From: a virus
Reading direction: 5' to 3' (one strand)
IMG/VR virus record: IMGVR_UViG_3300045971_000409
Location: 13,349 to 77,348 of that record
Length of the DNA: 64,000 bases
Shown one piece after another: positions 7,374 through 63,788 of the stretch (positions are counted from its first letter, which is position 1; each line of letters opens with the position of its first letter). The position numbers were made by a program, and so were the translations under genes. Below the pieces are notes generated by a model. That model saw nothing but the letters and a program-made list of their open reading frames with translations, was not told where the DNA came from and made no database searches.

Positions 7374-7391
7374 TGTGCAATCAATTGCACA
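7374..7391. promoter_or_regulatory. 18-bp palindrome copy 1 (TGTGCAATCAATTGCACA), intergenic
   Basis: Seen directly; symmetry extends to 7371-7394; just upstream of a possible TTTACA-N17-TATATA promoter (7398-7426). Confidence 0.85.
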
Positions 7392-7482
7392 AACTTATTT
7401 ACAAACCACCAGGACTGGGGTATATACAGGGCATCACCTCAAAATTATACGGTCCACCCGCCCTCGTAAAAGGAGTTATTGT

Positions 7483-8400
7483 ATGCAGTATTCCATAGGT
7501 ACGGTGGCAGTAACCCACGATAGTGCCACAGTAGTGGGCACTGGTACCCAGTTTCTACTGGTAGTACAAGTGGGGCACTCCTTCAAGCTAGACCTGGACT
7601 CTGTGGTTTATACCATAGCGGCCGTAGTATCCGACACCCAGCTCACTTTATCCGTACCATGGCAGGGATTAACGGGCTCGCTCAAAGGATACAGTGTTGG
7701 CATCAGTTACACCCCCAACTTCAATCTTTACGAGGTATCCGCCTCCGATAAAGATTGGGCGGCCCACCTCACCCAGAATACTATCCGTAAAATTGACAAT
7801 CTCCTGCGGCTCACCCCAGGGGTAACACGGACAGGAATAGTGGCCCCTACGGCCCTAACCCCCGCGTGTGTGGGCGAGGTATATCAGAACACGGTCACCG
7901 GCATAACCTACGTGGCCAACACGGTAACCGTGGGCGGCTACAAAGAACAAGTAGGGGTAGTAGCCACCCAAACCCTGACCAATAAAACCCTCACCGCCCC
8001 CGTACTCAACGGCCTGGTAGCCTTACAGGGCCTCTATAATAATGCTCTCAAGCTCGGGGCTTACTACTTCTGGATGTCTGCCGCGGGCAAGTATTTCATG
8101 AAGAGCACGGCTCCTGCCAGTGAAACTGATGGCTTTGTTATCCCCCAGCAAATAGAAGGTAGCGTGGTATATGACCCGCCCAGTATCGCTATTGGTGGGC
8201 TACTGACCACCACCCTGGTCGTATCAGGATGCGCCATGGGGGACTACGTACAGGCATCATTCTCTCTTGATCTGCAAGGCATAACCTTGACTGCTTACGT
8301 TTCCGTAGCTGGAACCGTTACTTTTAGTTTTTTCAATGGCACAACTACCGCCAAAGACCTTGCTAGTGGTACTTTGCGGGCCAGGGTAACCAAACAGTAG
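7483..8400 (+). CDS. Tail fibre/spike-like virion protein
   Basis: Start moved to ATG 7483 (RBS AAGGAG). The N-terminus YSIGTVAVTHDSATVVGTGTQF and the TQTLTNKTLT motif are common in phage fibres. Confidence 0.6.
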   Translation: MQYSIGTVAVTHDSATVVGTGTQFLLVVQVGHSFKLDLDSVVYTIAAVVSDTQLTLSVPWQGLTGSLKGYSVGISYTPNFNLYEVSASDKDWAAHLTQNTIRKIDNLLRLTPGVTRTGIVAPTALTPACVGEVYQNTVTGITYVANTVTVGGYKEQVGVVATQTLTNKTLTAPVLNGLVALQGLYNNALKLGAYYFWMSAAGKYFMKSTAPASETDGFVIPQQIEGSVVYDPPSIAIGGLLTTTLVVSGCAMGDYVQASFSLDLQGITLTAYVSVAGTVTFSFFNGTTTAKDLASGTLRARVTKQ

Positions 8401-8425
8401 TTTTCCAAGGAAGGAGAATACCCAA

Positions 8426-9196
8426 ATGGAACCCACTATTAGGCCCACAGGAGGTACTTTCGACATGAGTTCTGAGGATGTGGATTCCCGGCTTCGGTCC
8501 ATAGAGAAGAATCAGGCTTTACATAAAGCTCAGGAAGAGCATCTGACCAAGACGGTAGATACTATCCAGGAGGAATTGGCTGAATTTATCAATCTGGCTC
8601 GTCAGTGTGAGTTGGTAAATGAAACAGATAAAAAAGTTATAGCCTTACATTTCCGTGTAGATAAAGTAGCCCAGGACCTAGCCGTACTACATTCCCAACA
8701 TGAGGCATGTATGAAAACGGGCGATAAGGACACAGCAACCCTCCTAGCCATACAGAAGGACGTAATGAGTTTGACCCTCAAGTTCGATCAGTTCAATGGT
8801 ATGAGGGCCACCGTAGAGGCCAACAAATCTGATATTGAAGCCTTGAAAACCTCGGTGAATGGCTTGAACTTATCCAAAGACAAGACCGAGAAGTTTGTTA
8901 TGGGGCGCATGGGTAATCTATTTGATGCAGGATTCAAAATCTTGGTGTCCTGCATGTTAGGCTGGTACGTTTATTCTAACGGTATCAGAACCCAGCAACC
9001 TCCCATTGCAATAGCACCTGTACCCGCCCAAGTACAGGTTCACAACAATCCTGGTGGTCCTGATGATGACCATGATAATCCCTACAAAAAGAAGTTGGAA
9101 GAACATCAGGAGCAAGATCGTAGATTCCAGATTGAGCTTTTGGAGAAACTGAAAACCAAAGGTATTACTATCCCACCTATACCCTCAATGCCGTAA
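8426..9196 (+). CDS. Coiled-coil protein with one C-terminal transmembrane segment
   Basis: Heptad-rich body; hydrophobic FKILVSCMLGWYVY; RBS AAGGAG. Confidence 0.5.
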   Translation: MEPTIRPTGGTFDMSSEDVDSRLRSIEKNQALHKAQEEHLTKTVDTIQEELAEFINLARQCELVNETDKKVIALHFRVDKVAQDLAVLHSQHEACMKTGDKDTATLLAIQKDVMSLTLKFDQFNGMRATVEANKSDIEALKTSVNGLNLSKDKTEKFVMGRMGNLFDAGFKILVSCMLGWYVYSNGIRTQQPPIAIAPVPAQVQVHNNPGGPDDDHDNPYKKKLEEHQEQDRRFQIELLEKLKTKGITIPPIPSMP

Positions 9197-9208
9197 CAGG
9201 AGACCATC

Positions 9209-9532
9209 ATGATTTTCGATAAACAGGACAAAGTGGCAGGTTATCGTCGGGCCAAGCAGGTTGTTATCGACAACCCCAAAGATGGTGTTCCTCGCCTGAC
9301 TTTCGTGCTGGAGTGGGTTGTTGAAGTTGATGGGAAAACAGTCTCCATTCCCGCAGGAGAGCTGTCAGAGGATCTCATTGACATGAGTGATCCACTGATA
9401 ATCTACAACCCCATTGATGATAGTGTCATTATGCCTGCCAACAGTGGATTTTTGCAGGCGGTCATTTACAGTGACTATATGCGGCGGGTAGCGCGGGAAG
9501 CGGCGGAGAAAGCTGCTGAGGCGGTGATCTAA
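9209..9532 (+). CDS. Hypothetical protein
   Basis: RBS AGGAG; coupled to the next gene. Confidence 0.6.
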   Translation: MIFDKQDKVAGYRRAKQVVIDNPKDGVPRLTFVLEWVVEVDGKTVSIPAGELSEDLIDMSDPLIIYNPIDDSVIMPANSGFLQAVIYSDYMRRVAREAAEKAAEAVI

Positions 9533-61605: not shown

Positions 61606-61845
61606 ATGGACGACATGGGACTGATACTATTCATCGCGGCGTTTCTCGGACTGATACCGGCGGCAATAGCCCACAGCAAGGGACGTAATGCTGTGGCGTG
61701 GTGGTTCTTCGGCTGGATGCTTTTCGTCGTGGCTTTGCCTTGCGCACTTTTTGTGAGCAATATCTCCGGCAAGAAATGCAAAGAGTGCGCTGAGTACATC
61801 CCGGAAGAAGCTCGCCGTTGCAAACATTGTGGGGCAGCAGTCTAG
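61606..61845 (+). CDS. Two-TM membrane protein with a C-terminal Zn ribbon
   Basis: LIPAAIAHSKGRN..WWFFG; KKCKECAE..EARRCKHCG. Confidence 0.7.
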   Translation: MDDMGLILFIAAFLGLIPAAIAHSKGRNAVAWWFFGWMLFVVALPCALFVSNISGKKCKECAEYIPEEARRCKHCGAAV

Positions 61846-62182
61846 TTCATCAGTCGGCATGTCAAAGGGCGGTTTCAGGTCAAGCACGACTGACCGCCTG
61901 ACACGCCCTGTAACCGCCTTCAAGACCCAGAAGCATACCAGTATCTACCCCAAGCCCTAGAAACCCCGTACAAAGCGATTATATCGCTCTCAAGCACAAG
62001 GAGAACACCATGCTTGCCCAGGAATTACGCGAGGGCGACGAATTTACGGTAAACCCCCCGGACGACGACCATCCTACCCGCATTTGCATCAGCAATGTAC
62101 CCAGCCCCAGCGGCCCCCCGATAATCAAATGGGGCTGGCCCGGCAACAGCATATTCTGGTCGTTCATCGGATTCAGATGTCC

Positions 62183-62200
62183 TGTGCAATTAATTGCACG
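62183..62200. promoter_or_regulatory. 18-bp palindrome copy 12, intragenic
   Basis: TGTGCAATTAATTGCACG. Confidence 0.85.
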
Positions 62201-62395
62201 AAAAGCGACAGAGCCCAATCTGTTCGAGCAATACCGGCAACGCCAGGCTTACGAGGCGGGAATCGAAGCCGCGGCCAAGATAGCAGAGTCATGCTACGAC
62301 TCACGATGCAGCCTGCAAACAGGAAAAGAGATTGCGGCCCACATCAGACGGTCGTTACTCACCAAGTACAACGGACCAATCACGGAGACAACGTC

Positions 62396-62863
62396 ATGAA
62401 ACATACACGCGGACCCTGGACACAGGGCTACGGCAATAACGTGTACCAGAAGGTAGAGGGCATGAATCGTAATCAAGGCCCCCTCATAGCCGTCTGCCAC
62501 CCCGCACCCGGAAAAACGGCAGCAGATTGGGAGCAGGTCTTTGCCAATGCCCGGCTGATAGCAAAAGCACCCGAGCTACTGGAGGCCCTTGAGCACGTAC
62601 TCCTGGTTACGGAAGACAACGGAGATATGGGGGACATTGACTGGAAACTTTTACAGGGTGTGGTGGCCGATGCCAAAGGAGAACTCCCATCCCCAGAGCC
62701 AGTCATACGGGAGGGTGACTTTGTGCTTTGGACCGATCCTGATTGCGGCGTCTGTACGGGCTACGGAAAAGTGCGGGCCATAACAGGGGAAGTCTACACC
62801 CTGGACATGGGACGCGGCGACATAGTGCAGGCATTGAAAACAGAACTCACCCAAGGAGCATAA
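62396..62863 (+). CDS. Conserved phage hypothetical protein
   Basis: MKHTRGPW...ANARLIAKAPELLEAL pattern, common in phages. Confidence 0.7.
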   Translation: MKHTRGPWTQGYGNNVYQKVEGMNRNQGPLIAVCHPAPGKTAADWEQVFANARLIAKAPELLEALEHVLLVTEDNGDMGDIDWKLLQGVVADAKGELPSPEPVIREGDFVLWTDPDCGVCTGYGKVRAITGEVYTLDMGRGDIVQALKTELTQGA

Positions 62864-63770
62864 ACATGGGACGATTAATCGCTTCGGGATTTTGGTTGAC
62901 TCTTTCCATAGTGGCGTGGACCTATGAAACAGACCTCGTGGTACTATGGGGGTCATTGGTCATATCGCACATCTGGATGGCATCGTACAAGTGGGGGGGG
63001 AGGTAATCATGCTGGACGATGATGATGAGTTTGTTTGTTGTCGGTGCGAGGGGACATTCGACATTGAGCAATCAATGCAGGAAGGCGGGAAACACGGTTA
63101 TCTGGTATGCGAGTTCTGTTACTTCTGCCTGCACCCCGAGGAGGAATCATGGTCAACGTAATCAGAGTAGACATAGAGGAAGAACTCGCGGCGGCCGAAA
63201 GAGGAGAATGTCTAGGATGCAGGACAGGGCTAACCCATAAGGCAATGAAGGAGTGCTTTCTCCCTCGGGTATCTTATGTACAGACCATGACCATCTGCCC
63301 CTGTGGAACCAAGTACGACAGAGCACATCTCTACAGTTGCCCGGAGTGTAAACTATGAGTGAAGAACTACAGCTACTACGCTACACCAAGACTCGTATTG
63401 ACCAAGTATTCGCATTGCTCAACAGCTACGCCAAAGACCCATACAACATGGGAGCCTCGGCGTATACTCAGGCAAGGATACTACCAACAGATATTCTAGC
63501 AGAAACGTACATGATACTAGCCCCGGTATCCCTCAAGCTGACAGAGCATTTAGAGATACAAGACAATGACCGCTGCCTGAAATGCGGGGCCAAGAAAGCA
63601 ACCCACATAAAAGACCACCTGTGCCGGATGCACATAGGAGTGGGTGCCAACCATAGACCTGGCTTCCTACCGTACTGCCTGGTCTGCGGGACGCGGCCAA
63701 GAAAGACAAGATAAAAGACCAGATAGGGAATACATACGGTAGGAGTCAGGACACAGTTCCCCTCCTGCCG

Positions 63771-63788
63771 TGTGCAATTAACTGCACA
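63771..63788. promoter_or_regulatory. 18-bp palindrome copy 13, non-coding
   Basis: TGTGCAATTAACTGCACA. Confidence 0.85.

Follow-up and report, generated by a model that had tools for sequence, protein, structure and literature searches.

The window analysed here is a 64,000-nucleotide stretch of viral DNA (bases 13349-77348 of the 77,348-bp IMG/VR record IMGVR_UViG_3300045971_000409) across which copies of a single 18-bp palindrome are scattered. Essentially all genes lie on the + strand (codon-usage-based gene calling). Those of the window include tail genes, an O-like initiator, DnaB, a primase, an intein-containing helicase, RecA, an exonuclease, PolA, a PPDK-like kinase, two phosphatase-like proteins and a portal gene followed by many small genes. 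An adjoining contig, IMGVR_UViG_3300045971_000430 (21,838 bp), holds TerS, TerL, ParB_N-domain proteins, a PAPS-reductase-like protein, the prohead protease and capsid genes.

The palindrome and its setting in the phage

A search of the window with TGTGCAATTAATTGCACA, allowing up to three mismatches, returned 13 matches (0-3 mismatches), all exactly where the initial annotation had listed them and separated by the gaps of 1.6-8.7 kb that it reported; dinucleotide shuffles of the window gave a mean of 0.01 matches and a maximum of 1. Three further copies lie upstream of the window, within the first 13 kb of the same record, and the adjoining contig contains six more exact copies of the 14-bp core, TGCAA-N4-TTGCA. 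Over 127 nt the end of that contig and the start of the window's record are identical; record and contig are therefore parts of one phage of ~99 kb with at least 22 sites, and the CheckV estimate of 62% completeness is explained by the assembly break between them. Two public pond-metagenome runs contain the stretch, as assembled contigs, and no RNA run is listed for it. The largest inter-site gap of the phage, 10.9 kb, exists because the region is occupied by the gene for a 3197-amino-acid (aa) tail-tip/central fibre protein (window 3-6827, start upstream at genome 10582), which has Phage_Tail_Tip and Laminin_G_3 domains. The sites of the window, and the promoter-like sequences next to them, are as follows (ORF, open reading frame; RBS, ribosome-binding site).

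7374..7391, no strand: site 1, TGTGCAATCAATTGCACA; intergenic, with the stop at 7365 10 nt before it
7398..7426, + strand: promoter-like TTTACA-17-TATATA, by consensus scoring only; its -35 begins 8 nt past the core of site 1
16068..16085, no strand: site 2, perfect 18-mer; intergenic, 6 nt past the stop at 16063
16093..16121, + strand: promoter-like TTGCCT-17-CATAAT; its -35 begins 9 nt past the core of site 2
20116..20133, no strand: site 3; in the 3' end (87%) of the O-like initiator gene (19217-20251), frame VQLIA
23169..23186, no strand: site 4; intergenic, 7 nt past a stop and 19 nt ahead of the ATG at 23206 (RBS GGAGG)
26081..26098, no strand: site 5, the weakest copy, with three flank mismatches and an intact core; in an 86-aa ORF, frame LQLIA
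30044..30061, no strand: site 6; intergenic, 15 nt ahead of the RecA/UvsX ATG at 30077
33879..33896, no strand: site 7; 3' part of an 88-aa ORF, frame VQSIA, with the next ATG ~30 nt on
39868..39885, no strand: site 8; in the phosphatase-like gene 39332-40165 at 65% of its length, frame VQSIA
47654..47671, no strand: site 9; intergenic, 14 nt past a stop, with promoter-like TTGCGT-17-TATACT 26 nt downstream
52407..52424, no strand: site 10; intergenic, 20 nt ahead of the ATG at 52445 (RBS AAGGAGG)
57450..57467, no strand: site 11, perfect 18-mer; 4 nt past a stop and 11 nt ahead of the ATG at 57479
62183..62200, no strand: site 12; among uncertain small ORFs
63771..63788, no strand: site 13; intergenic, past the gene ending at 63714 and close to the record end

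Several of these positions recur in relatives. Site 2 lies 162 nt upstream of an AAA-ATPase gene that has a site upstream in relatives too, site 3 lies 132 nt upstream of a 198-aa gene at 20264 that is preceded by a site in five relatives, and the relative G006 has a site at the same place as site 6, ahead of RecA/UvsX. Site 8 falls near the end of the ortholog-matching part of the phosphatase-like gene. Five copies had originally been placed inside coding sequences and read as (V/L)Q(L/S)IA; four of these are solid (20116, 26081, 33879 and 39868, in the frames given above), but the fifth falls on doubtful small ORFs. Over the whole phage, intragenic copies are found at 49-91% of the length of the gene that contains them, five of the six beyond 65%, and the use of one reading frame, xQ(L/S)IA, is accounted for by a TAA stop in another frame. 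The statement that several copies abut RBSs is borne out for 30044, 52407 and 57450, at 11-20 nt from the ATG, and for 23169 if the 104-aa ORF at 23206 is real.

Conservation and placement of the motif among related phages

An exact 16-mer search of IMG/VR recovered several contigs of ~50-96 kb with many copies. With one mismatch allowed, the 14-bp core occurs 26-59 times in four complete or near-complete genomes and 14-36 times in fragments, the reversed pattern being found in none, and the 13 genomes analysed in detail have 18-65 copies each versus 1-3 in shuffles. The scan of relatives that the initial annotation had proposed as a check thus finds the motif conserved: at least 14 distantly related phages carry TGCAA-N4-TTGCA, at 12-65 copies per genome. 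Protein identity among them is only 35-50%, their GC contents range from 45 to 61% and their hosts belong to the Alpha- and Gammaproteobacteria; the replication genes and portal are common to the window phage and its IMG/VR relatives (48-61% GC), at 35-50% amino-acid identity. The motif-bearing group is one of widespread phages of ~80-110 kb, and several of its IMG/VR members are flagged as provirus in isolate assemblies. The cultured relatives are listed below; counts for DLP5, RcZahn, SIO-2 and KarBoss allow up to one mismatch to the 14-mer.

Stenotrophomonas DLP5: 27 copies, centre TCAA
Rhodobacter RcZahn: 12 copies
Vibrio SIO-2: 12 copies
Vibrio KarBoss: 23 copies
Rhizobium RHph_TM16: variant TGCAACATATTGCA
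Rhizobium L338C: 55 sites (up to one mismatch), consensus TGCAACNNGTTGCA, reversed control 2
Rhizobium RHph_I4: 45 exact sites, reversed control 0
Pseudomonas PaMx31: 34 sites (up to one mismatch), consensus TGCAA(G/A)CG(C/T)TTGCA, reversed control 4
Rhodobacter RcTiptonus: 27 exact sites, TGCAATCGATTGCA

Each of L338C, RHph_I4, PaMx31 and RcTiptonus thus has 27-55 sites, against 0-4 for the reversed pattern. Counted with the general form TGCAA-N4-TTGCA, genomes of the family have 19-65 sites, as against 1-3 in shuffles. A megablast of 20 kb against GenBank phages found no close relative, a full-text literature search for the motif string returned nothing but unrelated primers, and the papers describing DLP3, DLP5 and RcZahn do not mention the repeat.

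One family member, G003 (IMGVR_UViG_3300009788_000003, 41% GC), is without the TGCAA-N4-TTGCA motif and carries instead 21 copies of another 14-bp palindrome, TGAT(A/C)(C/T)TA(A/G)(G/T)ATCA (of the TGATACTAAGATCA type), in an unchanged architecture. The early promoters of this genome are near-identical TTGACAAATA...TATAAT units. Two GC-rich 'provirus' fragments of isolate genomes, G011 and G013, have three exact cores each and few family genes in common (tape measure, XRE, ribbon-helix-helix and a 540-aa protein).

Conservation is limited to the palindrome and ~2 bp on either side, and no other element was found at a fixed distance beyond these flanks. In the window phage the right flank CA (16/16 C, 13/16 A) is better kept than the left flank TG, an asymmetry that was not found in relatives. 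The two half-sites are equally conserved over ~200 copies and remain fixed, whereas the centre differs between genomes (TTAA, TCAA, CATA, NN in L338C and CG in PaMx31 and RcTiptonus); the bias towards TCAA over TTGA in gene-dense, GC-rich relatives probably arises because TCAA removes the TAA stop. Among 822 hits recovered with up to two half-site mismatches allowed, 197 had one half-site pair broken and uncompensated, and compensated pairs made up 22 of the 408 two-mismatch hits, a class that holds many chance matches. Such uncompensated half-sites argue that the element is read as duplex DNA by a symmetric dimer, rather than as a hairpin. Together with the conservation across the family and the even spacing described below, they lend sequence-based support to the earlier proposal of a dimeric protein acting genome-wide. 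That a half-site serves as a -35 hexamer was also considered, and fits isolated cases only.

The share of sites that is intergenic amounts to 52-90% in nine genomes and to 27-29% in DLP5 and SIO-2, against a non-coding fraction of 6-17% across the genomes. Intergenic sites show a bimodal spread of distances between core and next ATG, peaking at 10-20 nt and 60-80 nt; the core begins 0-10 nt past the previous stop in 56 of 156 intergenic sites and ends 10-20 nt ahead of the next ATG in 37 of 156. In the 60-80 nt class (class A) a sigma70-like -35 starts 6-10 nt past the core, as in 18/24, 10/13 and 9/12 scored promoters of three genomes, which puts the centre of the site near -51; examples are TTGCAA-17-TAGAGA in G006 and TTGnnn-17-TAGGAT in G009. 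At class B sites the core begins 2-8 nt past the -10 and thus lies over the transcription start. Many others (class C) are without a nearby promoter and lie between a stop codon and the next RBS. Within the window the sites at 7374 and 16068 belong to class A, and those at 30044, 52407, 57450 and probably 23169 to class C. The initial annotation had noted that no copy overlaps a promoter, which is true as written, yet the sites at 7374 and 16068 lie 8-9 bp upstream of promoter-like -35/-10 pairs in what is a family-wide geometry. Its conclusion that the sites are not classical operators was too strong, a large share of the family's sites having a set, operator-like place relative to sigma70-type promoters, either over +1 or 7-9 bp upstream of the -35. 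At 82-87.5 kb of G006 there are ~20 tandem early-gene cassettes, each consisting of a GC hairpin, the palindrome, 8 nt, TTGCAA-17-TAGAGA and a small ORF, which resemble the mobile promoter/stem-loop cassettes of T4-type phages.

The prohead protease gene is preceded by a site in 12 of 12 genomes, including the changed-motif phage G003; this site is a class A one among alpha-clade phages and in G003, and a class B one among gamma-clade phages. In 11 of 13 genomes the sites are spaced more evenly than at random (coefficient of variation, CV, 0.49-0.73 versus ~0.95), most evenly in DLP5 and SIO-2 (P<0.0005), where most sites are intragenic. A test of spacing regularity, which had also been suggested at the outset, places the window phage among the evenly spaced (CV 0.65 versus 0.95, P=0.015).

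A candidate reader of the palindrome

Operators of the host regulators Rex, CRP/FNR, LexA, NtrC and sigma54 differ in spacing from the motif, by inspection against their consensus sequences (Rex TTGTGAA-N4-TTCACAA, CRP TGTGA-N6-TCACA, LexA CTGT-N8-ACAG, sigma54 GG-N10-GC), so that the element does not appear to be the operator of a known host regulator, the outcome that would have undone the original interpretation. The same motif is present in phages of Vibrio, Pseudomonas, Stenotrophomonas, Rhodobacter and Rhizobium, and a phage-encoded reader is therefore favoured.

None of the four helix-turn-helix (HTH) proteins of the window first put forward as binders fits. The MerR-like protein (29045-29491) occurs in the gamma clade and G003 only, with an HTH that varies among motif-sharing phages; the recognition helices of the O-like initiator (19217) and its 84-aa paralog (18933) diverge among phages with identical motifs; and the protein at ~54851 has no homolog in relatives. 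Of the other candidates, an XRE/Cro-like protein is limited to the alpha clade and G013. The ParB_N proteins went undetected in SIO-2 and G003, have an acidic 'recognition' helix region, and differ between G006 and G009 to the extent that their C-terminal halves are unrelated. The TerS-like protein has a variable HTH, a 261-aa protein resembles gp32-type single-stranded DNA-binding proteins (SSBs), and 167-aa coiled-coil and 119-aa proteins gave no informative match. A Pfam scan of 88 G006 proteins showed no strong HTH family among the best 25 families listed.

A better candidate is encoded outside the window, at 7874-8884 of the adjoining contig. It is a 336-aa member of phrog_17202, a family found in every motif-bearing genome examined and annotated to date as 'hypothetical', 'RNase E/G-like' or 'SSB'; other members comprise a 384-aa protein and paralogs of 171-230 aa in G006, G009 and G004, and no homolog was found in the available pieces of G011 and G013. 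In 7 of 10 genomes a site stands ahead of this gene, which adjoins RuvC in several genomes. An AlphaFold2 model built from a nine-sequence alignment has a helical core at residues 89-221 (predicted local distance difference test, pLDDT, about 84-95 by block). In VIA-align comparisons this core matched ParB's DNA-binding domain (DBD) bound to parS (Z 8.5, 116 residues), the KorB DBD bound to its operator (Z 7.5, 107/114), Spo0J (Z 7.5), KorB-CTP (Z 6.3) and VirB (Z 4.6), values in a range (under ~13) which according to the tool can arise by chance for helical bundles and which are middling; five ParB-family entries are among the structure matches, four of them in the top eight. When two copies were modelled as a complex, the prediction reached 0.70 as against 0.00 for the best of three controls, a mark attained by 20 of 30 solved same-chain pairs and by 1 of 23 single chains; the homodimer runs agree in at least 53% of contacts, with a partner pLDDT of at least 70. 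Judging from these models, the core probably has the ParB/KorB HTH DNA-binding fold, and a universal candidate of this kind, predicted to form a homodimer, would be in keeping with the stoperator-like and ParB-like options raised in the initial annotation.

Several results weigh against this assignment. The RuBisCO factor Raf1, which belongs to an unrelated family, matches the core equally well (Z 9.7). Foldseek gave no hit for the core at E<=0.001, and Pfam and PDB sequence searches with phrog_17202 found nothing; in particular, Pfam detected no ParB_N domain (CTP-binding, GxxRxxA) in the 336-, 384- and 178-aa members. Residues 1-88 are modelled as disordered.

Searched by tblastn, the core domain matched 58 GenBank phage records, some of them in distant groups at 30-37% identity, and the prediction that such distant carriers would bear the motif held for L338C, PaMx31 and RHph_I4. 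RcTiptonus, picked as a negative control because it was negative by tblastn, proved to bear both the motif and a divergent phrog_17202 homolog (profile search, E=1.9e-22). An 11-way alignment of orthologs shows a conserved recognition helix, YRKAxY, in which the ortholog of the changed-motif phage G003 alone (1/11) has Cys for the Ala of YRKA; the same ortholog reads GWSIL at a place where GW(T/S)K is the majority form. The pairing of phrog_17202 with the motif is suggestive, as a co-occurrence inside one deep lineage. Here too there is a counter-argument: shared ancestry confounds the co-occurrence, and we found no related phage lacking both protein and motif that could serve as a true negative.

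Proposed function and alternative explanations

One dimeric regulator reading many copies of one operator is a kind of system already known. Among the closest examples is KorB with its operator OB on the IncP plasmid RK2 (PMC11790492; 1r71), where a palindrome of similar size likewise recurs many times on a single replicon. The operators of KorB are found 4-10 bp upstream of promoters or at distances of 45 bp to >1 kb (PMC11790492), and both the proximal and the distal geometry are found here, with promoters as consensus predictions: some copies stand 7-9 bp upstream of the -35 and others far off. In addition, the phrog_17202 core aligns to the KorB/ParB DNA-binding domains and the protein is a predicted dimer. 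Unlike KorB, phrog_17202 is without the ParB_N/CTPase domain and so would form no sliding clamp by itself, and the phage sites are 2-5 times more numerous, occur over +1 and next to RBSs as well, and have been kept in phages whose hosts belong to two proteobacterial classes. General scans turned up no KorA-like or IncC/ParA partner, although no dedicated search was made.

The stoperators of mycobacteriophages (L5/Bxb1 gp71-type) are similar in comprising tens of repressor sites, mostly in short co-directional gaps, and are thought to stop elongation and repress promoters (PMC9283540, PMC6550527). Short co-directional intergenic gaps are found here as well, but the asymmetric 13-bp, orientation-dependent, monomer-bound site, which differs between sub-clusters, is not; instead there is a symmetric site, predicted to bind a dimer, near-invariant across a much deeper group and with a candidate reader of ParB/KorB-like fold. 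In P1 (C1 operators) and phiC31 (CIRs) one phage repressor acts at many dispersed operators, which are often intergenic. These systems resemble the present one in having many genome-wide operators for one phage repressor and differ in that the P1 operator is asymmetric and the repressor families are unrelated; they serve immunity, and we know of no conservation of them across phage families.

Our working hypothesis, to which we give about an even chance of being correct, is that the palindrome is the duplex site of a phage-encoded homodimer, most likely phrog_17202, that acts as a KorB-like global silencer or roadblock. The sites, their conservation and geometry, and the co-occurrence with phrog_17202 are observed; from them we infer binding by this protein and repression as its outcome. 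A homodimer occupying 20-60 sites per genome would bring about global transcriptional silencing or roadblocking. It would sit 7-9 bp upstream of the -35 at class A sites and cover the transcription start at class B sites, and between co-directional genes, occasionally within them, it would block or attenuate read-through. Class B and class C placements are most simply taken as repression or roadblocks, in the manner of mycobacteriophage stoperators (PMC9283540). In this manner the sites may set the expression timing of the unidirectional gene train, including the head-morphogenesis operon, and in temperate plasmid-prophage members phrog_17202 may keep the gene train silent. At the head operon the site is of class A in one clade and of class B in the other, which points to one common outcome, and repression would be compatible with both arrangements. 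Proximal KorB repression does not require the CTPase clamp (PMC11790492), which matches both the class A sites and a candidate binder without ParB_N. DLP5 and DLP3 are temperate (PMC5834331, PMC7326821), and in such phages silencing the whole plasmid-prophage would be a natural task.

There are difficulties with this hypothesis beyond those of fold and ancestry. The promoters are throughout matches to the sigma70 consensus only. A site centred near -51 could activate instead of repress, and phrog_17202 is without the ParB_N CTPase domain that KorB needs for long-range action. Some members, among them the Samunavirus UF_RH6 (PMC10281142), are described as lytic; a pure role as prophage repressor is thus not general, and control of timing during infection should also be considered. 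Finally, sites that are ~70% intragenic and very evenly spaced, as in DLP5 and SIO-2, suit genome coverage at least as well as promoter control.

It is this last point that keeps alive the main rival, a structural or coverage role. ParB-parS, Noc-NBS and N15 SopB also pair 14-16 bp palindromes with ParB-fold HTH dimers. The sites of Noc and N15 are dispersed throughout the replicon, those of N15 in part close to regulatory regions. These systems differ from the present one in having a CTPase domain and a ParA or membrane partner, in copy number and in promoter register, and several members of the motif family are described as lytic. By analogy with them, the same protein-site pair would do a physical job, the sites being anchoring or loading points that organise, partition, condense or mark phage or plasmid-prophage DNA, with the ParB_N proteins as possible partners; we consider this possible, though unlikely. 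Spacing that is most even where sites are mainly intragenic would be expected of it. The window phage encodes three Pfam-confirmed ParB_N proteins and a fourth related by profile, a ParB_N protein is encoded beside TerL in most relatives, DLP5 replicates as a phagemid (PMC5834331) and a ParB-like protein is present in DLP3 virion preparations (PMC7326821). However, anchoring needs neither the 7-9 bp register to the -35, nor placement over +1, nor a universal head-operon site; no ParA was seen, in a search that was not exhaustive, and ParB_N proteins, as noted, were not detected in SIO-2 or G003.

A further reading is a 'split ParB', in which a DBD-only phrog_17202 would mark 20-60 evenly spaced palindromes and recruit or load the separate ParB_N (CTPase-fold) proteins into a genome-wide nucleoprotein coat. 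We regard this as decidedly unlikely. If true, such a coat would go beyond promoter control: it might silence the plasmid-prophage, insulate transcription units, and pass heavily modified DNA to the replication, modification or packaging machinery, and it would represent an ancient chromatin-like layer in phages of at least five host genera.

It is improbable, in our estimation, that the sites are operators of another, conventional HTH repressor, the alpha-clade XRE/Cro-like protein or the MerR-like protein at 29045-29491. Cro/cI proteins of the 434 type typically have 14-bp operators whose outer bases are fixed and whose AT-rich centre is free, the XRE gene lies directly upstream of a promoter-plus-site unit in G009, G004 and G006, and the MerR-like protein matches phrog_19880, annotated 'transcriptional regulator'. 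Against this, the motif is identical in the two clades to which these proteins are respectively restricted (apart from G013 and G003), and the HTH helices of the MerR-like family differ among phages that share it.

We think it highly improbable that the palindromes are nick or cut sites, in the style of T5 or phiKMV, for a RuvC-like, 119-aa resolvase-like or HNH nuclease serving recombination-dependent replication or packaging. Sites dispersed evenly at 2-4 kb, two universal resolvase-like proteins and the location of the candidate binder gene next to RuvC in several genomes would suit such a role, but known phage nick sites are asymmetric and strand-specific where these are symmetric, and the promoter register would be left unexplained.

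There is only a very slight chance, we believe, that the element works in RNA, as a hairpin upstream of the RBS that affects processing, stability, translation or termination. The many copies 10-20 nt ahead of an ATG and 0-10 nt past the previous stop would be well placed for this and, with all genes on one strand, every copy would be transcribed given read-through. Yet compensatory change is absent, the sites are not followed by a T-run, class A copies keep a fixed DNA register upstream of promoters, and the loop is symmetric in most genomes, which a hairpin does not require.

Barely credible, lastly, is the idea that the element is itself the promoter for a phage-specific sigma factor or RNA polymerase with its start at the right-flank CA, for although that flank is the better kept in the window phage and a self-contained 18-bp element directly ahead of an RBS is reminiscent of the promoters of phage polymerases, Pfam/PHROG scans covering part of the proteome turned up neither a phage RNA polymerase nor a sigma factor, the symmetry would be unexplained, the flank asymmetry is absent in relatives, and class A and B copies flank ordinary sigma70-type promoters.

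Some neighbouring genes deserve mention in their own right. Four ParB_N-like proteins (three Pfam-confirmed) and a PAPS-reductase/PP-loop protein are encoded beside TerL at 12082-17140 of the adjoining contig, a cluster that recalls DNA-modification modules (DndB/DndC- or Dpd-like); DLP5 and DLP3 DNA reportedly resists most restriction enzymes. A module at window 34786-41014, universal in the family, encodes a PPDK-like dikinase (ATP-grasp and swivel only), two dual-specificity-phosphatase-like proteins and proteins of 346 and 260 aa, and may have a role in nucleotide or DNA modification. Between its kinase and the two phosphatase-like genes, at 36920-37234, lies the gene for a 104-aa CsrA-like protein (a weak Pfam CsrA match, under the curated cut-off) that is present in 8 of 10 relatives. 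The SF2 helicase at 26724-28991 has an intein-like insert with an HNH endonuclease (HNH_3; weak Intein_splicing, below the Pfam cut-off), and its orthologs align over only ~340 of 755 aa. The universal 261-aa protein (24869-25654), with an invariant Cys/Cys-Pro-x-Cys cluster and weak T4 gp32 profile matches, is probably an SSB. It and the products of 22217-22720 and 29517-29876, with their orthologs, are unrelated proteins with a similar Lys-rich N-terminus, MA(L/I)K(L/I)xKK..., a shared peptide that may be an interaction or targeting tag.

What is new here is the motif itself and the depth of its conservation, in phages of Vibrio, Pseudomonas, Stenotrophomonas, Rhodobacter and Rhizobium, together with the fixed promoter registers, the natural specificity variant G003 and, as far as modelling allows, a candidate ParB/KorB-DBD-like reader without a CTPase domain. 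The element amounts to a family-level cis-code, with the same ten specified bases kept in at least 14 genomes across two proteobacterial host classes. Its carriers include phages studied for therapy (Stenotrophomonas DLP3/DLP5, Pseudomonas Samunavirus and Vibrio SIO-2-like phages). G003 and the remaining members would form a natural specificity-switch pair for studying target change in ParB-fold proteins. If the KorB-like reading is true, this would be the first KorB-type global silencing network in tailed phages known to us, and one run by a ParB-fold protein without a CTPase domain; it would offer a handle on gene timing and on the control of lysogeny in plasmid-prophages, testable in cultured phages.

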